From NCBI GenBank assembly GCA_038826135.1, contig JAWBON010000009.1, positions 829 through 28,594 of the forward strand: DNA of 27,766 nt. The letters run 5' to 3'. This DNA is from Candidatus Odinarchaeota archaeon (GTDB lineage: Archaea > Asgardarchaeota > Odinarchaeia > Odinarchaeales > Odinarchaeaceae). The notes below the pieces were generated by a model that was given only the letters and a program-made list of their open reading frames with translations, had not been told where the DNA came from and searched no databases. Positions within the stretch are counted from its first letter, which is position 1. Every line of letters starts with the position of its first letter. A program made the position numbers and the translations under genes. Positions 15,622-26,107 of the stretch are shown here, piece after piece.

Positions 15622-18600
15622 TCACTCGGTTCTTTTAATATAGCCAGGCTCCGGTTCAAATATCGTCCCATCGTTGAGCAGTCGCTGAAGAGCTTCTTTA
15701 ACGAATCCTTCTTCAAGCTGATATTCTTTAGCTCTATCTATGACGTCTTGGAGTGGGACCGTTCCTTTCTGCTCTTTTTCAAGGTTGGATATAATATCTA
15801 AAAGTGTGCTAAGCCTGTCACGTTGACTTTTAGGCGCCCCTGTCATTAATATGTCGATATCCATTTTACCAGTCTCCTTGTCCACGCCAACCTGGTGGAG
15901 GCATGATTTAACTAGTTTTATCACAGCTTCCGTATCTTCAACAGTAGCCTCTTTTTTAAGAGCCATTCTAGCTCTGGCTTCAACAAGACGTATTAAAGCT
16001 TCTAATTGACGGGCGGTTATGGGTACAGGTGAATCCTCTCCCTCCCCGGATTTTCGCATCTCTAAATAGAATTCCTGTATTTTTTTAGCAGCTTCAGGGC
16101 TTATTGAAGGCGAACAGTTTCTTTTAGCGTATGTTATATATTTTCTCAGAAAATCTATATCTAAGGGTGGCTCAACGCTCTCTCTTCTGTGAAGGGATAG
16201 TATGTGCTCAGCTATTTTACGATCTTTTTCTACATCCGGCTTATCAGTCACTATGAATATTAAATCAAATCTGCTTAGCAAGGTTACTGGTAATTTTATG
16301 TTATCCGCTGGGGTTCTATACTCGTTGTATCTTCCTAAAGCCGGGTTTGCAGCTGCAAGAATACTTGTTCTAGCATTCAGCGTGGCGATAATACCGGCTT
16401 TTGCGATACTTACCGTTCTCTGCTCCATCGCTTCATGTATCGCCACTCTATCCTGGGGGTTCATCTTATCAAACTCATCTATACAGTTATGCAGCCAGAC
16501 GCCGTTGCCATAAAAGTTGTTGAATCCAGGAACATAAAGGTCATAGACAAAGCCTTTATATGATTTTTTTCTAATGGCGACTATTTTATCCAAAAAATAG
16601 TCTCTTTTTGTAATTGTATTTATTTCATTATTAAGCCCTGCGGGAAGATAATTCGCCAGTTTGTCTCTGATTTTTTCTAATTGGATTCTAGACGGTTGAT
16701 TCTTTTGTTTATTATAAGCATATAAAGTGCTCCAGACTCCTTTTTTCACCAGAATCGATTTATTTAAATTACTTATAGCTTTACTTATTCTTGACACTGC
16801 TTGGCTTGGTAATTTATCGCTGTCTGATGAAACTTTATTTATAGAAGGAGGAATTTTCGTCTTTTGAACTTTAATACTATGTTCTTTCATTAATTTACAG
16901 AAATTATTCACGTCAGCTCTTCCAGTTATTCTAATTATATTCGCATTCTTTTTTATTAATAATTTAGAATAGACATCTAATCTTCTCAGAGCTTGCATAA
17001 AGGCTAAATCTTTTTTCTTATTATCAGAAAGAAGAAATTCTATATGTGCCGTATAATATTTTTTATCTTTTTTTCTGCTTTTCTTAATAGATACATAACC
17101 GTCAGAATCAAAGGCTCCTGCTATAAATTCTTTAAGACAGTTTTGAGGTAATTCTAAAATATTTTTCAGATTCTCTTTTAAAAAGTAATCAATAATGAAA
17201 GTTAATAGATTCGAGCGAATAAATAATTCAGTAAATTTTTCTGAAACTTGTTGATCCTTAATAATTGAATTATTCTCTCTCTGGTGTTCCCATAATTTTC
17301 TATACGAAATTTTTTCTATACATTTCTTTAATTTATCGATAATTTCTTTTTTCTTTATTGGTTGTTTTATTTGAATCATCGATCCTCTTTTATTAATTTG
17401 ATAAGTTCCATCACCATATACAACGCCTAAAAGATAAGAGAGTTCCGGTGTTATTTTGCTAATTTTTAAGGTTTCACCCATCTTTTTACGTGCATATTTA
17501 ATAGGTTTATCTTTCCATTCGTCAATTAAATTGAAATAATTTAAAATTTCTTTGAATTTTCCTAACTTAAAGTGTTCATTACCTGAAAGAATTCCTCTCT
17601 TTATATTGAAAGCTTTATTGAATTCGCTGACGCTTCTAAAGTTTTGTAAAATTATTTTTTTCAATTTTTGTTTATCACTTTTTGACAGAATAACCAGCCA
17701 ATCTTCAGGTATGATATCGAATAAATATATTTCCCTCTTAGGCTCGCTGATTTTTAAAGGGGCTATGATATAATCCCCTACTTTAAATTCCTGGGCCGAT
17801 CTCCATGTAATACTATTTCCATCTATTAATTTATGGTCGGGTGTTAAATTCAACTCAAACCCGGAATTTAATTTAATATGAATAATTTCACCGTCATATT
17901 TCTTTCTTCTAATAATATTCGATTCTGTCTGAGTGGACTCAAATTTTTCCAAGTTAAAGGTTTTAATCTCACCGTTAATTGGGGCGATTTGAATTTCTTC
18001 ACCATTACTGTACCTGATTTGCATTAAATCTTCATTAAATAATTTCTCAATCGATATAATTCTATTATTAAAAATTATATCGGTGTTTGGATGTAAACAT
18101 GCTAAACCTTTATCAGCTAAAACTAGTGCCCCTGCTTCAAGAGCCATCGCTCCGGACTCATCTTTTAAAACAGCGGCTGTGTTATGAACTAGTAATCCGT
18201 TAGCTATGAAGCTGTGGCTGTCTTCAACAGTGACATCGTATACCCATTGATGAATGTTAGAGTTTGAAAACTCAATTTTTTTAACTTTATCCCAGAAAAT
18301 ATCTGTCTCTTTCAAATCTTCTGGTGCATATGATGGTTGACTTGAGGTTTCGGTTATACTCGTCTCCTTGTGTGTTAGCGGCGTGGTATAAATTTTATAG
18401 TATGGTGGTTTATTGTAAACGCTATTTTGTGAATTAATCCAGGTTTTCTGTAGATGTTCAACTGCTTTTTCAAGTTTTTCTCTTTTCAACTTTGATTTTG
18501 AACCTATCCTGTCACGATAAATTATTAATTCAAAACCGTTTATAGTAAGTGTTTGAGCTTTATCCTGGGATGTCTTATCTGATTTAAATTCTTTTTTATC

Positions 18601-21591
18601 AGAATCTGTTAATCCTTCACCCTCTATTCTCGCTATAATACCGTATCTGAGAAGTGCTAGTTGTATTTTTCTAGCTATAAGCTTGTTTGGTAGACTGATA
18701 CTTATGTTAGGTGTTCCTTCTCTTGTTAGTGAAATATCAGCTAAATAGTCGAATAGACCTGATATAAATGCTGCCATCTCTTTCTCTCTTAGTGAAAGAG
18801 TTAGTTCGCTTAAATCTATTATTTCATTATCTTCGGTGGCTAAACCAGCTTTATTAAGGATTTTTGCTATTATTCTCGAACTTATTACTAATTCTAGTCC
18901 GTTTTCAGTCTCTTCCGGTAGGATGTTGAAAACTCTTTTTACTGTTTCACTGAATAAGTTTATTAACTCGCGTGAACTGGTTGCGAATCGGATTCTATCT
19001 GCCTTCTCCGGAGTTTTATTGTATATACGGCTGCCTGCGACTAATCCTGTAATATACATGATTCCCCAGTTCAGGTAAGCGGGTATTTTAAGCCTATTCT
19101 CCCCACTTTCATAATACTCTCTTATATAGCGGGTTATATAATTTAAGCTGAATCCTGCGTTTTTCGAATATTTGATAAACTCTCTTAAAGGTATTTTAAC
19201 AGTATCACAACTTTCAACAGTTCTAGCATGCTTCTCTTTATCTAATTCGCTTATAGTCTGATTTTTTATATTTTCTAAAATATTTTTATTATTTAATTTT
19301 TCAAGGGTTTTTTTAAAAAATGTTTTCATCACGCCAACTTCAATGTTTTCATCATCGCCGATAAGCGCTAAAATATTTACTCTCTTACCATTATAGATTA
19401 TTCTCCGCGCCGCTGCTAAATAATCGTTGACTGTGAAGTCTGCGGCTTTCTTCCAGTATATTAAGCCGTTTTCTAATGTTTTCATTTTAGTTTCAGGTGT
19501 GAGTGTAATCTCTCGGCCAGTATATGTTAATATTTTAACAAGTTTTTCCGGTGTTTTTATCTTCCATAAACCAGTCACTTTTTTATCAACGTTTTTAAAC
19601 GGGTTGATTGTTTTAATTTTAATCTCAGTTTTAGGGTTAACTTTATACACTCCTTCCTGAATTTTTAAGGCTCCCTCGTTTAAGTGCTCTTCTACGAGTT
19701 TGCCGATTTCGTAAGGTGTTTCATCTTTAACTATTATCGTATCAGGCGCTACGCAAAGCCCGGCCGCGGAGGAGCCTTTACCGGAAGTGTATAGGCCTCG
19801 CGGCGCTAGTTGAGCTGTATATTGGAGGATTTGACTATTATGCACATAAAAATCGTTAGCTATGAAATTATTCGACCCTGGGACCTGCAGGTCATACACC
19901 CATTGAGATGTAGGTTTTATTCTCGCAATTTTCGTGATTCTATCCCAGAATATGTCAGTTTCGCATATTAGGCTTAATCGCTGGAGGCTTTCACTAGAGC
20001 CATGCTGTTTAACATGTTCAATAATTTTTTTAAGATGTGTTACATTCGCCTCTAAATCCCCGTTTTCATATTTCTTGTATAAGGGCTCTGGGATCCCCAT
20101 CTGATTTATTTGAAGATTTCTTTCCTCTCTGATTTTTTTAAGGAGTTGTCTTACACCTGGTATTATAGTTAAACCAGCCTTTTTATCTGTATTTTCCAGT
20201 CTAGATGTGGCGATAAAATCTTCTAAGGATAGTTCCTTTGCTTCCTTACAGAATATTAATCCATTATTCGTTGTGTAAAAAGGATGGGTTGGTGTTACCG
20301 TGATCTCTTTTCCATGCTCTGTTTTAATATTAATCATGTAGGATGGCGCGCTTCTCTTCCAGAATATATTCGCTTCAGCCGGTTCTATCCGACCTCTCCG
20401 GTTCATAGTTAATATTATAACAGAACCGTTAGCGTAGTATCCGTCATCTATTATGTTAGTGTTTTTTTCAAGGTTTTCTTCAACTAGTTCCTCTATTCTA
20501 CGTTTCTCCCCTGAAGCCATTAGAACAAGAGCGCCGGGTGCTAGGCATTTTGCTGTCCCCGGGTCTCCTACAAGTAAAATGTTTGATTCACCTCTGATTT
20601 TCATAGAGTCGGGTAGTACTTTACTAACACCGCCGAATAGTTGGAGTGCTATGGCTTCTTTGACGTCTTCTAATCCGTATATGCTCGGGGCTATGCTTTT
20701 AATTATCTTGTTATGGATTTCCGGATCCCGGCTTATTTCAAGTATCTTCTGCTCGTCTTCCGGTGTAATCTCTGTTTTCTCTAATTCTTTCTCTGTTATG
20801 TCGATATAGTTTGCTTCTAAATAGATCTTGAAGGTGCTTAGTTTAGTTCTGCCTGCATATTCCGGTGTGCTTCTCAGAATACCTATAATACTTACTCTGT
20901 CACCGGGTCTGGCTGAGTCTACAAGATCGTATGTTAGGATAGCGTCTATCGCTCTTGGTAGCTGGCCTGGCGGTAACTCCTCGGGTTTCTCTTGGACTCT
21001 TATTTTCTGCCAATCTTCAAATTTAGATTCTTCATTTATCAGTCTAAAAGGCCCGTTTCTTCTACAATTAGTGTTCTCGCATATTATTGGTTTAATTATC
21101 TCCGTGGTCTCCTGTCTCACAAAGTTTCTGTAATGGCATCTTAGGCATTCGAAGGCGGCCTCTACCAGTCTTGGTTTAACTTCACTCGCTCTAGTTAGTA
21201 TTCCATCTATCATTACTAGAATGCCGATATGTTCGCTTCTTATTTTACGGAGTGGTATATGATTAATGCTCGGTAGGTTTCTAAATCTCACAAAAAGCGC
21301 TCTATCCTCGTTTTTAAGCTTCTCAAAGTATTCTCGATCTTCAAGTTCTAGTACAGTCATAGCCGCTCGGTCTGCTGCTTTAATCACCTCTTCAGGTTTT
21401 AAAAGCAAATCTCTTGCTATCTCAGCGTCGTATCTTAGAAGATCGTCGAAATCAACTATTATAGATATTTTATTCTCTATGCTTAGCTGCTGAATTTTTC
21501 TTCGATATTTTAATTCATTTTTCTGATCTTTAAAGCTTTTAAAGAAGTCTTCAAACTTCTCTTCAGGATCTATTGCAGCCTCTTCACTCAT
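15622..21591 (-). CDS. mcm: MCM replicative helicase precursor (1989 aa) with three inteins; spliced product 689 aa
   Basis: Zn finger CLRC..CENTNC, IAPSIYG, Walker A GDPGTAK|S, GKGSSAAGL|T, ADKGLA|CIDEFDKM, SRFD arginine finger, ITARQLE, C-terminal wHTH. Confidence 0.97.
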   Translation of the reverse strand: MSEEAAIDPEEKFEDFFKSFKDQKNELKYRRKIQQLSIENKISIIVDFDDLLRYDAEIARDLLLKPEEVIKAADRAAMTVLELEDREYFEKLKNEDRALFVRFRNLPSINHIPLRKIRSEHIGILVMIDGILTRASEVKPRLVEAAFECLRCHYRNFVRQETTEIIKPIICENTNCRRNGPFRLINEESKFEDWQKIRVQEKPEELPPGQLPRAIDAILTYDLVDSARPGDRVSIIGILRSTPEYAGRTKLSTFKIYLEANYIDITEKELEKTEITPEDEQKILEISRDPEIHNKIIKSIAPSIYGLEDVKEAIALQLFGGVSKVLPDSMKIRGESNILLVGDPGTAKCLAPGALVLMASGEKRRIEELVEENLEKNTNIIDDGYYANGSVIILTMNRRGRIEPAEANIFWKRSAPSYMINIKTEHGKEITVTPTHPFYTTNNGLIFCKEAKELSLEDFIATSRLENTDKKAGLTIIPGVRQLLKKIREERNLQINQMGIPEPLYKKYENGDLEANVTHLKKIIEHVKQHGSSESLQRLSLICETDIFWDRITKIARIKPTSQWVYDLQVPGSNNFIANDFYVHNSQILQYTAQLAPRGLYTSGKGSSAAGLCVAPDTIIVKDETPYEIGKLVEEHLNEGALKIQEGVYKVNPKTEIKIKTINPFKNVDKKVTGLWKIKTPEKLVKILTYTGREITLTPETKMKTLENGLIYWKKAADFTVNDYLAAARRIIYNGKRVNILALIGDDENIEVGVMKTFFKKTLEKLNNKNILENIKNQTISELDKEKHARTVESCDTVKIPLREFIKYSKNAGFSLNYITRYIREYYESGENRLKIPAYLNWGIMYITGLVAGSRIYNKTPEKADRIRFATSSRELINLFSETVKRVFNILPEETENGLELVISSRIIAKILNKAGLATEDNEIIDLSELTLSLREKEMAAFISGLFDYLADISLTREGTPNISISLPNKLIARKIQLALLRYGIIARIEGEGLTDSDKKEFKSDKTSQDKAQTLTINGFELIIYRDRIGSKSKLKREKLEKAVEHLQKTWINSQNSVYNKPPYYKIYTTPLTHKETSITETSSQPSYAPEDLKETDIFWDKVKKIEFSNSNIHQWVYDVTVEDSHSFIANGLLVHNTAAVLKDESGAMALEAGALVLADKGLACLHPNTDIIFNNRIISIEKLFNEDLMQIRYSNGEEIQIAPINGEIKTFNLEKFESTQTESNIIRRKKYDGEIIHIKLNSGFELNLTPDHKLIDGNSITWRSAQEFKVGDYIIAPLKISEPKREIYLFDIIPEDWLVILSKSDKQKLKKIILQNFRSVSEFNKAFNIKRGILSGNEHFKLGKFKEILNYFNLIDEWKDKPIKYARKKMGETLKISKITPELSYLLGVVYGDGTYQINKRGSMIQIKQPIKKKEIIDKLKKCIEKISYRKLWEHQRENNSIIKDQQVSEKFTELFIRSNLLTFIIDYFLKENLKNILELPQNCLKEFIAGAFDSDGYVSIKKSRKKDKKYYTAHIEFLLSDNKKKDLAFMQALRRLDVYSKLLIKKNANIIRITGRADVNNFCKLMKEHSIKVQKTKIPPSINKVSSDSDKLPSQAVSRISKAISNLNKSILVKKGVWSTLYAYNKQKNQPSRIQLEKIRDKLANYLPAGLNNEINTITKRDYFLDKIVAIRKKSYKGFVYDLYVPGFNNFYGNGVWLHNCIDEFDKMNPQDRVAIHEAMEQRTVSIAKAGIIATLNARTSILAAANPALGRYNEYRTPADNIKLPVTLLSRFDLIFIVTDKPDVEKDRKIAEHILSLHRRESVEPPLDIDFLRKYITYAKRNCSPSISPEAAKKIQEFYLEMRKSGEGEDSPVPITARQLEALIRLVEARARMALKKEATVEDTEAVIKLVKSCLHQVGVDKETGKMDIDILMTGAPKSQRDRLSTLLDIISNLEKEQKGTVPLQDVIDRAKEYQLEEGFVKEALQRLLNDGTIFEPEPGYIKRTE
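16486..18099 (-). mobile_element. MCM intein 3 (538 aa, before Walker B) with apparently intact LAGLIDADG homing endonuclease
   Basis: Starts C (CLHPNT), block B TPDH, YLLGVVYGDG and FIAGAFDSDG, block F VYDLYV, ends WLHN followed by Cys(+1). Confidence 0.95.
18181..19755 (-). mobile_element. MCM intein 2 (525 aa) with degenerate LAGLIDADG domain
   Basis: Starts CVAPDT, block B TPET, degenerate YITGLVAGSR and FISGLFDYLA, VYDVTVEDSHSFIANG, ends VHN followed by Thr(+1). Confidence 0.94.
19837..20547 (-). mobile_element. MCM intein 1 (237 aa, in Walker A), endonuclease-free, with internal XRE-like HTH
   Basis: Starts CLAPG directly after the P-loop Lys, block B TPTHPF, VYDLQV, ends VHN followed by Ser(+1). 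No LAGLIDADG motif seen. Confidence 0.94.
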
Positions 21592-21592
21592 A

Positions 21593-22147
21593 TTAATCTC
21601 CTAGTATTCTATCCACCCATATTTTTATTATATGATTTATTTTTTCATAAAGCCATTTTTCCTCTTCTGTTAGGTTCTCTAAGATTTTAGGCGGGGCTCC
21701 TCTAAAAGATATTTTAAGTATTTTGCTTACGCGCGTTGATAAAAGATCGTTTAACTGCGTCTCTAAGCCCTCGATTTTTTTTATCATTGCAGGATTCGGG
21801 TTTAATTTAAACTCTTTTTTTAACCGGTTTAATATGTTCGAAATCTTAAGGTAAAATGGTCTCTCCAACTCTTCTAGCTGTGTCTTAGCTTTTTCGCTCC
21901 AAACTTTTTTCTGAATGTATGTTTCATCTAACTCCTCTTTTTCTATGAACTCCGCCAGACCCTCATCTACTAGTATTTTAGCTTTCCACCAGGGGATTTC
22001 AAGCTCTGAACCTGCGGGTTTCACCGGGATCTCAAGCTCCACTGCAACATCTTCACCTATCTCATTAGTTATTCTTACCAGTACCGGTATATGTATTCGT
22101 GAAAACAACATTTCATTAATTTCCTTTATCTCCAATTTCAAGACCAC
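21593..22147 (-). CDS. gins23: GINS subunit, Gins23-type (B-domain then A-domain)
   Basis: N-terminal beta domain (ELEIPWWKAKILVDEG), helical A-domain (FY, STRVSKILK, NLTEEEKWLY). Its stop lies 1 nt before the mcm ATG, the known gins23-mcm arrangement. Confidence 0.85.
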   Translation of the reverse strand: MVLKLEIKEINEMLFSRIHIPVLVRITNEIGEDVAVELEIPVKPAGSELEIPWWKAKILVDEGLAEFIEKEELDETYIQKKVWSEKAKTQLEELERPFYLKISNILNRLKKEFKLNPNPAMIKKIEGLETQLNDLLSTRVSKILKISFRGAPPKILENLTEEEKWLYEKINHIIKIWVDRILGD

Positions 22148-22300: not shown

Positions 22301-23317
22301 ATGGAAAACCAGTGACTGAATCCTAGTAGACTTATCATACTAGTTTTAATAACAGCTGTTTCAGGGATTTTAATAGGTCATTTTCTCCCTTGGGTGTCTG
22401 CGTCTCTTTTAAACCTCCAATTTATGAACATCTCTATACCTATAGCTGTTTGTGTTATCGCTCTTTTAACCCCTCAGTTCATGTGCTGGAATATATGTAA
22501 AAAAGAATTTTTTAAAGCGGTTAAAAGACCGCTCCCTTTAATCATCATTATATTATCTAACTGGCTTATCTCACCTTTAACCGGTATTTTATCAGCCAGT
22601 ATTTTTTTAACCGCTAATCTCTCTTTTAAGTTAGGGGTTTCATTATTATTTTTAGGGCCATCGATATCCATGGTCATATATTGGAATAAGCTTGCAGGGG
22701 GTTCCCAAAACCTAGTTACGGCTGCTACTTTATTAAATTTAATTATCATAATCACGGTGTACCCTTTTGCAGCGTATATTTTAATCGGTCATATAGCTGT
22801 ATGGGTTCCTTTAGAAATTGTTTTCTTAACGATCTTAGTATTTTTTTTAACACCGCTTTTCCTAGGTCTATTATTAAGAATATGCTTTAAGATTAATGTT
22901 GTTAGCAGGAACACCGTCATTTCTGTTAACCGTGTTTCTGACAAAATATCCGTTACAGTTTTTTTCGCACTGATACTTATTTTATACATTGTTCAAAGTG
23001 AAAATATTATTCTTCACACGCTTGATTTCATAATTTTATCTGTGCCTATAATATTTGGTTATATGCTGGTTTACGCGATGGTGTCAGCGTTATGTTTTAT
23101 TGCCCGTATTAGTCAAGCTGAGAGTGCGACCGCTATCATAGTAGGTTCCGGTAATCAATATGAAATAGCTATAGCGGCTTCAACAATCATCTTTGGTGTG
23201 CAATCTGGTGTAACACTCGCGGTTAGCATCGGGCCTGTGCTCGAGGCGCCTCTTATGCTACTTTTAATAAGTATAATATTTAGATTATCCAGTTTGCGCT
23301 CCTCTAAAAAATTATAG
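22301..23317 (+). CDS. Acr3-like (BART/SBF fold) secondary transporter; in-frame TGA at codon 5, so possible pseudogene or internal start
   Basis: SNWLISP, GPSISMVIYWNKLAGG, GNQYEIAIAA and GPVLEAPLML match Acr3. The ORF-track start GTG 22394 omits an in-frame TM1 (LIILVLITAVSGILIGHFLP), which follows ATG GAA AAC CAG TGA. Confidence 0.75.
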
Positions 23318-23390
23318 AATTTAATATTTTTAAGAAAATTTTAAGGTAACCGTCCTTATTTTTGTTTAAGATTTTTTTGTAGGGTAGAGG

Positions 23391-23398
23391 TTTAAATT
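23391..23398 (+). promoter_or_regulatory. Probable TATA box of the ThrC-like/PadR gene (leaderless)
   Basis: TTTAAATT ends 22 nt before ATG 23421; no SD before that ATG. Confidence 0.45.
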
Positions 23399-23420
23399 TA
23401 CTTATCTAATTAATTTATTT

Positions 23421-24836
23421 ATGGTTTCTATGCGGTTTAAGTGCCCTAGATGTGGTAAGATTTACGTGGCGGAGCGGGTTCTCTCCCTTTGCGAGGGGTG
23501 TGCTTCCCCCCTTATTTATTTTTATGATTATTCTAAAATCAAGGATACGCTCTCCTTTTCAGATGAGAAGTCTTTTTGGAGGTTCTCATCTCTTCTCCCT
23601 CCTATTGAATCCAAGTTTAGAATCTCATTGGGTGAGGGTGTTACACCCATCTTCAGGTCCACTCGGATGGGTTCTATTATAGGATTGAATAACTTGTTTT
23701 TGAAGGATGAATCACGTAATCCTACAAACTCATTCAGGGATAGAGCTGCCAGTCTACTGATCTCACATGCTTTAAGTTTAAATTTCAGTGAGGTTCTATG
23801 CGCCTCTAATGGGAATCTAGGGGCAGCTATTTCCGCTTATTGCGCTAGGGCTGATATTAAGAGCACGATTGTCACGCCCAGTCTGGTTGATATCGGTAAA
23901 CTATCTCAAATGAAAATGTACGGTGCTAATATTGTTTATGAGGGTGAAACTATTGATGAAGCTATCCGTTTTGTCCTTGAAGACTGGAAGGATAAAAATA
24001 TGTATCAGGCAACGTCGGGGCTTAACCCGCTTATATTAGAGGCTCAGAAGACAATCGCGTATGAGATTATTGAGCAGGTGGGTGTGCCTGATTTTGTCAT
24101 TGTGCCTATGGGGGACGGTGGAACTATTTACTCTATTTGGAGAGGTTTCAGAGAATTCTATGATTTAGGTTTATCTTCTAAGCTGCCAAAGATGATTGGT
24201 GTGCAGTCCCTCACGTGCTCACCTATCGTTAAAGCTTTTGAAAAAAACTCTGATGTGACGCGTTTTCCCGGTGGAACAACTATTGCTTTAGCTATACTGG
24301 TTTTAGAGCCTTTAAACGGGTGGTTGGCTTTATCAGCTTTGAAGGAGTCTGAGGGTGTTGCCTTATCGGTTTCTGATAAAGAGATTTCTGACTCTCAAAG
24401 ACTGCTAGCATTAGAGGAGGGGATATACGCTGAGACAGCTAGTTGCGCGACATTGGCGGCTGTTAGGAGGCTGGCTACGGATGGTGTTATAGGAAGAGAT
24501 GATCTTGTTACGTGTATAATTACAGGAAGTGGGTTAAAGGACCAGTACTTGCTGGCGGCTTTAACTGGGTTATCTAGGAGAGTTAATTTAGCTGATAGAG
24601 TTAATTTGAAGCTTCGAATATTAAGGTTGATTTCGCTTGGAGAAACTTACGGTTACTCGCTCTGGAATTCTTTATCGAAATCAGTTACTTTACAAGCTAT
24701 ATATCAGCATCTTAATGAATTAGAGACTCGTGGGCTAATAGTTTCTACGGATAGGGATAATCGGAGATATTATTCTATAACTGGTAGGGGTCTTAAAGTG
24801 CTTAATGCTTTAGAGGAGCTTGCGTTTCTTCTTTAG
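23421..24836 (+). CDS. Threonine-synthase-fold (PLP fold type II) protein with Lys-to-Arg at the PLP site, fused to a C-terminal PadR-like winged helix
   Basis: Zn ribbon CPRC..CEGC, SLGEGVTP, LKDESRNPTNSFRDR, ASNGNLG, VPMGDGG, TGSGLKD. Residues ~394-471: ILRLI..GETYGY, IYQHLNELETRGLI, RRYYSITGRG. Confidence 0.88.
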   Translation: MVSMRFKCPRCGKIYVAERVLSLCEGCASPLIYFYDYSKIKDTLSFSDEKSFWRFSSLLPPIESKFRISLGEGVTPIFRSTRMGSIIGLNNLFLKDESRNPTNSFRDRAASLLISHALSLNFSEVLCASNGNLGAAISAYCARADIKSTIVTPSLVDIGKLSQMKMYGANIVYEGETIDEAIRFVLEDWKDKNMYQATSGLNPLILEAQKTIAYEIIEQVGVPDFVIVPMGDGGTIYSIWRGFREFYDLGLSSKLPKMIGVQSLTCSPIVKAFEKNSDVTRFPGGTTIALAILVLEPLNGWLALSALKESEGVALSVSDKEISDSQRLLALEEGIYAETASCATLAAVRRLATDGVIGRDDLVTCIITGSGLKDQYLLAALTGLSRRVNLADRVNLKLRILRLISLGETYGYSLWNSLSKSVTLQAIYQHLNELETRGLIVSTDRDNRRYYSITGRGLKVLNALEELAFLL

Positions 24837-24841
24837 AAATA

Positions 24842-24880
24842 TTTATATAAAAGTTAACTCTTGTATACAAGTAATTACTT
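24842..24880 (+). promoter_or_regulatory. TATA box plus three abutting palindromes (candidate operator) upstream of the ECF S-component gene
   Basis: TTTATATA 24842-24849; AGTTAACT 24852-24859; CTTGTATACAAG 24860-24871; AAGTAATTACTT 24869-24880. Confidence 0.65.
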
Positions 24881-24894
24881 TAATATGTGGTCCT

Positions 24895-25440
24895 ATGATA
24901 ACGCAGTCTATTAAGGCAAGGTTCCCCAACTATCCAGTATCAGTCCAAGCAGCGTTAATAGGTTTATTCGCAGCGTTAACCATAATATTAACAATAATCA
25001 TTCAGATACCTGTGCCCGCTACAGGCGGATACATTAACATAGGCGACGCCGCTGTGATGCTCGCAGGCTTGTTGTTCGGACCTGTTATTGGAGGCATAGC
25101 TGGCGGTTTAGGATCTGCACTAGCCGATATAATCACCGGCTACGCGTTTTACGCCCCGTGGACGCTGATAATCAAAGGGGTTGAAGGCTTTCTAGCCGGG
25201 TTTATCAGTAGAAGAGACCGTTTCACATACTTTGATATCATAGCTTGTTTTCTAGTAGCTGGACCATGGATGATAGCAGGGTATTTTATGGTTGAAACCT
25301 TACTGTTTAGTTCAGCTGCAGCTATAGTTGAACTCCCGCTGAATGCGGTTCAATTCAGTGTAGGCGGGGCGGTCGCTTTACCTGTATCCATAGCTGCTAG
25401 GAAAATTACGCCGCCGCTGAACGCTTTTAAAGGTAGATGA
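24895..25440 (+). CDS. ECF transporter substrate-binding (S) component, COG4720-like
   Basis: AALIGLFAAL (AxxxA), IPVPATGGYINIGD, LFGP..GGIAGGLGSALAD, APWTLIIKGVEG; about 6 TMs. ATG 24895 is preferred over TTG 24820, which overlaps the upstream gene and its promoter. Confidence 0.88.
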   Translation: MITQSIKARFPNYPVSVQAALIGLFAALTIILTIIIQIPVPATGGYINIGDAAVMLAGLLFGPVIGGIAGGLGSALADIITGYAFYAPWTLIIKGVEGFLAGFISRRDRFTYFDIIACFLVAGPWMIAGYFMVETLLFSSAAAIVELPLNAVQFSVGGAVALPVSIAARKITPPLNAFKGR

Positions 25441-26107
25441 CCTCTATTTCTTTCTCTCTCCTTATTTTCGGGCCTTTTCTAGTAAATCTTCTATATAGTA
25501 ATGCGAATAAAATACCGGCTATGAACCCTCCTACATGCGCGAAGTGAGCTATACTAGACGCTGCGCCGAATAATCCAACTATACCTAAAACTGTTTCAAG
25601 AATAAAGAAGAGTGCTATAGCAATATAAGCTCGTACAGGCGCGAAAAAGAAGAGAAATAGATACTGGTTAGGGTAGTTGACTGCGAACGCAGCCATCACA
25701 CCGAATATAGCTCCTGAGGCGCCTATTGTAATAGTGTAGGCTTCAACTGGCATAAATATGTATGTAATATATGAGTGTATGAGTCCGGCTAGTACGCCGC
25801 AAAATAGGTAAAATATTATGAATAACGGTGGACCGTATTTTCTCTCAACAGCAGGGCCGAATATAAGCAGTATATACATGTTGAAGAAAATGTGGATAAA
25901 ACTTCCATGTATGAACATCGAGGTGACTAGTGTTTGAAGGTTAATCCCTGAAATTATCTCAAAAGGGATTAACCCAAAGTTTAGAACAAAATAATTATAG
26001 TATACTGGGCTGGCGCTTTGAATAAAATATATTATTACGTTGATAGCTATTATCCCTACTGTGGCATACGGGAAACTTCTTTTCGGAGCTGTAGGAGTGT
26101 AAAACAT
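25427..26107 (-). CDS. Rhomboid intramembrane serine protease
   Basis: SMFIHGSFIHIFFNM, GASGAIFG (catalytic Ser), AHFAHVGG (catalytic His). Confidence 0.95.
   Translation of the reverse strand: MFYTPTAPKRSFPYATVGIIAINVIIYFIQSASPVYYNYFVLNFGLIPFEIISGINLQTLVTSMFIHGSFIHIFFNMYILLIFGPAVERKYGPPLFIIFYLFCGVLAGLIHSYITYIFMPVEAYTITIGASGAIFGVMAAFAVNYPNQYLFLFFFAPVRAYIAIALFFILETVLGIVGLFGAASSIAHFAHVGGFIAGILFALLYRRFTRKGPKIRREKEIEVIYL

Follow-up and report, generated by a model that had tools for sequence, protein, structure and literature searches.

The window analysed here, a stretch of 27,766 nucleotides from contig JAWBON010000009.1 (assembly GCA_038826135.1), belongs to an Odinarchaeial metagenome-assembled genome (MAG) of hot spring origin, which is 93% complete and 1.26 Mb in size; among named relatives, Ca. 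Odinarchaeum yellowstonii is the closest (75% identity). At positions 23421-25440 the window contains, head to tail, a gene here called R, a 12-bp palindrome and a gene here called S, both genes being read on the + strand. R (23421..24836, +) is an open frame of 471 amino acids (aa) that matches PF00291 and PF03551 and is predicted to encode a threonine synthase (ThrC)-like pseudoenzyme with a PadR-type winged helix-turn-helix (wHTH), while S (24895..25440, +) encodes an S-component of the energy-coupling factor (ECF) type with 181 aa. An earlier reading of the same stretch, made without database searches (the sequence-only reading), had described the regulator, the palindromic promoter and the S-component as consecutive and co-directional, and this arrangement was confirmed. 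For S, the start at ATG 24895 is preferred over the TTG at 24820 of the listed open reading frame (ORF), which overlaps R, because a protein of 181 aa fits the length and the full coverage of its closest homologues.

S matches PF07155 with an E-value of 1.3e-37 (Pfam; COG4720), and its sole sequence match in the PDB at E <= 10 is chain S of 4HZU (4HZU_S, 9.3e-18). The latter is HmpT/PdxU2 of Lactobacillus brevis, also a PF07155 protein, the substrate of which was identified as pyridoxamine by mass spectrometry (PMC4860826). HmpT/PdxU2, from one of the S-component families with which the sequence-only reading had proposed to compare S, is its only solved relative, and PdxU and PdxU2 are the known vitamin B6 transporters of COG4720/PF07155 (PMC9997740). 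All scores of S against the S-component models of NCBIfam are below cut-off. S is annotated here as a putative PdxU-like transporter of B6 vitamers. The genes flanking R and S encode an ACR3/SBF-type transporter (+), a rhomboid (-) and GlmS (-), and no ECF A or T gene is found among them, as the sequence-only reading had stated. An EcfA-EcfA'-EcfT module (ABC_tran, ABC_tran and CbiQ/EcfT as consecutive genes) was found on contig C43 and a separate CbiM-CbiN-like-CbiQ-CbiO set on contig C6, to which two contigs the EcfT matches in the genome are confined. Because the EcfAA'T module lies on another contig, S is considered a solitary, group-II type S-component that shares its module, like PdxU and HmpT/PdxU2, and the earlier expectation that it is served by an ECF module encoded elsewhere is borne out.

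The intergenic gap between R and S is 58 nt long and holds TTTATATA at 24842-24849 (+), which is read from the letters as the putative TATA-like box of the S promoter, and CTTGTATACAAG at 24860-24871, a perfect 12-bp palindrome with an imperfect extension over 24845-24886. The palindrome, a putative operator of R, closely follows the TATA-like box and occupies the expected site of transcription start. At up to 1 mismatch, 0.07 matches to CTTGTATACAAG are expected in the window; the exact 12-mer has a single occurrence in the 1.26-Mb genome, and two sites with one mismatch look coding. Control of S by a riboswitch was rejected, as a search of positions 23000-25700 against Rfam returned zero families at E <= 1, which agrees with the riboswitch-free circuit that had been suggested before.

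Related loci share this promoter layout. The Odinarchaeial loci L010 and L011 keep the palindrome as (A)CTTGTATACAAGT, and in Bathyarchaeia TAGTATAGTTnnAACTATACTA is found at the equivalent place, immediately after an A/T-rich box that it abuts or overlaps; an A/T box equivalent to TTTATATA precedes the palindrome in the related loci. The Bathyarchaeial 22-mer palindrome is present in one copy per genome in four genomes, of which at least three are complete or single-contig chromosomes, even when 3 mismatches are allowed. The operator sequence therefore varies with the lineage of the regulator, while its position in the promoter is constant. Further regulon members were sought through additional copies of the operator and rejected, given the single site in the window genome and in each of the four Bathyarchaeia genomes. 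With one site per genome searched, the regulon gives no clue to the substrate. In two loci of Promethearchaeota (L012:3224-3338 and L013:3079-3193) the half-sites are split as ATATACAAGTT-N19-AACTTGTATAT, one on each side of the A/T box rather than both behind it, so that the architecture of the operator differs and the half-site is the same.

The putative regulator R and its lost active-site residues

R is predicted to consist of an N-terminal zinc ribbon with four cysteines (C8, C11, C24 and C27; 23442..23501, +), a fold-type II pyridoxal 5'-phosphate (PLP)-enzyme domain (PALP, PF00291, 2.9e-69; residues 68-369; 23622..24527, +) and a C-terminal PadR-type wHTH (PF03551, 4.6e-07, 30.2 bits vs a cut-off of 27; residues 400-461; 24618..24803, +). 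Neither a GntR nor an aminotransferase match was returned by the Pfam scan. In the AlphaFold2 (AF2) model, which has a mean pLDDT of 86.8, a linker of ~25 residues (371-393) is disordered and residues 390-470 form helices and a beta hairpin. The best structural match of the model is ThrC of B. subtilis (6CGQ, TM 0.86, Foldseek), and among solved proteins the best matches to a profile of the R family are threonine synthases (2ZSJ, 2.5e-86). The four cysteines are nearly invariant in alignment A1 of the family and invariant in alignments A2 and A3, and the wHTH motifs YGY..W and YQHL are invariant in alignment A1.

In every ThrC, the lysine of the SFKDR motif carries PLP as an internal aldimine. 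R reads SFRDR, with Arg106 (codon AGG, 23736..23738, +) at the position of this Schiff-base Lys, where it aligns with the Lys of 2ZSJ and with that of the genome's own ThrC (NPTGSFKDRG). The Arg is shared by 119 of the 120 best homologues of R and is invariant in alignment A1, so the idea of a sensor that is a retired PLP enzyme, put forward in the sequence-only reading for one protein, holds across the family. R also reads SGLNPLI where the genome's own ThrC reads NSLNPWR (the NSxNPxR motif) and SNGNLG where it reads STGNTS (the GNT(S) loop). The Asn-Ser and Arg of the former motif and the Thr of the latter are those which we take, from the structures of T. thermophilus ThrC, to hold the phosphate of O-phosphohomoserine. 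The Gly-rich loop for the PLP phosphate and the TGxGLK motif are kept in the R family (alignment A1). As the PLP-phosphate loop is kept and the Lys and the substrate-phosphate residues are gone, the pocket of R looks fit for the phosphate of a PLP-like ring and unfit for chemistry. Judged by these residues, R is a retired enzyme and no longer a threonine synthase.

R is named threonine synthase in database sources, a label that results from its PALP fold and from a score above the cut-off of TIGR00260 (thrC; 196.9 vs 167.1 bits); against PRK05638 it scores 373 vs 421 bits. A genuine ThrC with SFKDR is encoded directly after thrB elsewhere in the genome, its gene being divided between two contig ends (C83 and C89; L204, G000:C83). 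R is not the housekeeping threonine synthase.

The genes paired with the R family

The R family is widespread in archaea. A scan of one genome per species gave 216 relatives with the Arg motif, and the pairing with S was counted in the 80 best loci, which represent Bathyarchaeia, Odinarchaeia and further Asgard groups. In 71 of these loci S follows R directly and in the same direction, in 3 further ones it lies within about 1.3 kb of R, and three of the six loci without S end at or just past R. The conservation of the pair, which the sequence-only reading had made a test of its proposal, thus extends to 74/80 genome loci and to most loci of a sister clade. R adjoins S in 13 of the 31 Asgard genomes searched. 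A search for a cultured carrier of R gave no score above the cut-off of PRK05638 in any of 14 control genomes.

The regulators of the sister clade, found in other Asgard genomes and in metagenomes, are of ~500 aa and have I, L, M or V in place of the Lys. Their 64 metagenome loci include 40 in which the regulator gene is divergent from an S-component gene of the same kind and 5, two of them near-identical, in which it is divergent from pdxS-pdxT; 12 have neither S nor pdxST and 7 are without upstream sequence. In the genome G017, R, pdxS and pdxT are consecutive on one strand. The bipartite motif ATATATRAG-N7-YCYATATAT, part of which may be two back-to-back TATA boxes, is found in the shared upstream region in 36/40 of the S-linked loci of the sister clade, in all five pdxST-linked loci and in 2/12 of those linked to neither, and a degenerate copy also precedes R in the co-directional locus of G017.

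In a quick maximum-likelihood (ML) tree, which was midpoint-rooted, Lys-bearing ThrC proteins, including those of the same genomes, are set apart from the R family with an SH-like approximate likelihood ratio (SH-aLRT) support of 96. The Arg clade and the hydrophobic (I/L/M/V) clade have supports of 100 and 91, respectively. The pdxST-linked members are placed beside S-linked ones (L165 as sister of L144 and L181 as sister of L187, each with a support of 100), so that closely related regulators have swapped between S and pdxST as targets.

Proposed control of S and rival explanations

We propose that R is a B6-responsive repressor of the adjacent PdxU-like transporter gene S, a reading that we regard as fairly likely. 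Those checks named in the sequence-only reading that are computational all agreed with the circuit it had proposed. We infer that R, probably as a dimer, would dock via its PadR wHTH on the one palindrome that separates the TATA box from the S start and that its ligand, probably bound reversibly and non-covalently, would be PLP or a related B6 vitamer. When B6 is plentiful, R would sit on the DNA and block transcription initiation of S. When B6 is low, R would leave the DNA and the S-component would be made and would join EcfA-EcfA'-EcfT from the other contig, and B6 vitamers, which the host apparently is unable to make, would be imported. The sign of the regulation is read as repression from a single piece of evidence, the position of the palindrome behind the TATA box and ahead of the S start.

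Vitamin B6 is proposed as the transported substrate with moderate confidence. It had been named as a possibility by the sequence-only reading, and the evidence has shifted towards it: regulators of the sister clade are found at pdxS-pdxT with a shared putative operator motif, and the R-S pair is found only where PdxS was not, often with ThiC present. In the window genome, at its 93% completeness, neither PdxS nor PdxJ was found and ThiC is present; searches for PdxS were likewise negative in the three remaining members of the genus, including a single-contig genome, and in five further R-S genomes. Among the 31 Asgard genomes, the 13 with an R-S pair include none with PdxS and 8 with ThiC, and the seven with PdxS include none with an R-S pair, one with R-pdxST and two in which R is of the Arg type and adjoins a DUF4147/MOFRL gene, with no strong match to PF07155, numbers that form a pattern and not a statistical test, as these genomes are mutually related and some are incomplete MAGs.

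That last reservation is one of several points that weigh against the proposed B6 module, of which the first concerns the transporter. At the positions of the pocket residues E41, H84, Q87, Y120, N140 and Q143 of HmpT (PMC4860826), S of the window has D, K, E, Y, N and Q, so that an acidic residue is kept at E41 and only Y120, N140 and Q143 are identical. Lys and Glu in place of H84 and Q87 are found in nearly all S proteins linked to R in archaea (K in 119 and E in 120 of 121), and the first position is always E or D. The regulators of G016 and G026 are of the Arg type (SYRDR) and have neither S nor pdxS beside them. The full-length ThrC-PadR member encoded at L104:4085-5548 (G018:C60), convergent with an S-component gene, keeps the Lys (SFKDR); it nests inside the Arg clade of the quick tree and may represent either a reversion or an intermediate that is still catalytic. 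The remaining points bear on the rivals below.

One rival leaves the B6 module as described and changes the role of R, which would be an activator that is on in its apo form and is countered by PLP, as in PdxR, or would be released from DNA by its ligand, as in PadR. Classical PadR proteins usually release DNA upon ligand binding, which is the logic opposite to that proposed here. PdxR works as an apo-form activator on pdxST (PMC5320631). In the window, however, the palindrome is downstream of the TATA-like box and over the expected start, and that of Bathyarchaeia touches or overlaps the A/T box. Archaeal repressors usually act downstream of the TATA box and ahead of the start codon, whereas activators mostly bind upstream of the TFB-recognition element (BRE) and the TATA box. 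We consider this rival unlikely, though not negligible.

A second rival keeps the same module of regulator, operator and transporter and assigns to it another PLP-shaped ligand, either hydroxymethylpyrimidine (HMP), with HMP phosphate (HMP-P) or thiamine pyrophosphate (TPP) as the effector, or an amino-acid derivative. HmpT was originally predicted to be a carrier of HMP (PMC4860826), and HMP-P is similar to pyridoxine 5'-phosphate (PNP) and does not need a Schiff base; the pocket residues of S, unlike those of HmpT, would also suit this view. In about 50 Bathyarchaeia loci (e.g., L047:6219-7253), a gene related to AIR synthase (AIRS and AIRS_C domains, ~330-345 aa) directly follows S, and in the complete genomes of Thermofilum (CP006646 and CP007493; L208/L209:4518-5510) S is followed by the AIRS-like gene with no R beside it. 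The best NCBIfam scores of this gene are 133 bits for HypE and 94 bits for ThiL, and a link to thiamine is conceivable because it scores on both models. In addition, ThiC as well as PdxS was not found in the four Bathyarchaeia genomes searched, which makes HMP or thiamine conceivable as the substrate in Bathyarchaeia. Against HMP, ThiC is encoded in the window genome and in most of the Asgard R-S genomes, all of which were negative for PdxS, and the sister regulators with the same motif sit at pdxS-pdxT and not at thi genes. The AIRS-like gene, moreover, scores higher for HypE than for ThiL, falls short of all cut-offs and lacks an orthologue in the R-S genome G003. On this evidence, another PLP-shaped ligand is improbable, and B6 is retained as the preferred ligand and substrate.

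The last rival, that R is a working, perhaps bifunctional threonine synthase with an accessory wHTH and that its adjacency to S has no regulatory meaning, is very improbable: its database name, a TIGR00260 score above cut-off and a PRK05638 score that is nearly so are opposed by the absence of the Schiff-base Lys across the clade, the replaced substrate-phosphate residues, the separate Lys-bearing thrB-thrC of the genome and an adjacency to S or pdxST, with a single-copy palindrome, that is conserved across phyla.

Known systems and other observations

In characterized PdxR and GabR, the lysine carries the PLP. Like the PdxR/MocR regulators of Bacteria, R is predicted to be a transcription factor (TF) that joins a former PLP enzyme as the sensor to a wHTH. 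MocR factors, in contrast, have an N-terminal GntR-type wHTH and a fold-type I aminotransferase-like domain, while R has a ThrC-like sensor of fold-type II and a C-terminal PadR-type wHTH, and R, unlike them, has an N-terminal zinc ribbon and has lost the Schiff-base Lys. R is therefore not a member of the MocR family, given the differences in sensor fold type and in wHTH, and looks like an independent invention rather than a MocR homologue, since the sensor fold, the type and position of the wHTH, the zinc ribbon and the Lys all differ. To our knowledge, B6 regulators are known from Bacteria only, where they are PdxR-type MocR factors. MocR factors are reported not to be present in Archaea (PMC5320631). 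The bacterial PdxR regulons contain pdxST, pdxK and pdxU (PMC5320631), and the neighbours of R and of its sister clade are of the same two kinds, B6 synthesis and B6 uptake.

Among the archaeal regulators, RbkR, in which riboflavin kinase is joined to a helix-turn-helix (HTH), resembles R in that a DNA-binding domain is joined to a pathway-related enzyme domain and in that it controls synthesis and transport genes, with no corresponding riboswitch in Archaea (PMC5397151). RbkR is still an active enzyme, while the catalytic residue is gone from R. ThiR, another archaeal vitamin regulator, reportedly combines a ThiN-like domain with an HTH. Both RbkR and ThiR differ from R in vitamin, enzyme fold and DNA-binding family alike. 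ThrC itself (TIGR00260/PRK05638) shares with R the fold, the archaeal-type zinc ribbon, the PLP-phosphate loop and TGxGLK, and R differs from it by lacking the catalytic Lys, by its replaced substrate-phosphate residues, by the extra wHTH and by falling into a separate clade.

On balance, we favor the view that the R family would be the first archaeal family of B6-sensing TFs and would have arisen independently of MocR/PdxR, with the loss of the Lys making PLP a reversible signal, the fusion of a PadR wHTH and a repeated swap of targets between uptake and pdxST. No published account of a ThrC-PadR family, of an archaeal B6 regulator or of a fold-type II TF of this kind was found in a search of the literature outside subscription journals. 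B6 transporters are poorly known across prokaryotes (PMC9997740), and the module described here supplies candidates for both a sensor and a transporter of B6 in archaea, together with a defined putative operator. R would also be a clean example of a pseudoenzyme turned ligand sensor, convergent with MocR. If this reading is true, hundreds of archaeal annotations as threonine synthase are wrong. R passes the thrC equivalog cut-off without the catalytic Lys, a systematic misannotation that distorts the metabolic reconstructions of Asgard archaea and Bathyarchaeia, which feed inferences of auxotrophy and syntrophy.

The AIRS-like protein encoded behind S in Bathyarchaeia and Thermofilum may be an unrecognized salvage enzyme for the imported compound, and might be one for B6 if R is indeed a B6 sensor. 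The window genome has two AIRS-like paralogues, one of them divergently upstream of thrB-thrC (L204, G000:C83). The other (L205:1388-3006, G000:C44) has ThiL as its best model (98 bits) and is adjacent to a gene for a protein of 192 aa whose sole match is to the C-terminal, ThiN-like part of ThiDN (PRK08573); the two could be an archaeal ThiL with ThiN or ThiR.

In G016 and G026, R is followed by a DUF4147/MOFRL (glycerate-kinase-like) gene with no S-component (L106:2687-5490 and L107:2645-5478). Both genomes carry pdxS-pdxT elsewhere and have no strong match to PF07155. A remote pdxS target of R was considered for them and rejected, as no shared operator was recognizable upstream of pdxS.

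Elsewhere in the window, the ORF at 15622-21591 (-) encodes an MCM helicase of 1989 aa with three inserted blocks that, in the translation, are bounded by Cys...HN and look like inteins with homing-endonuclease parts. A GINS (Sld5) gene is found next to it at 21593-22147.

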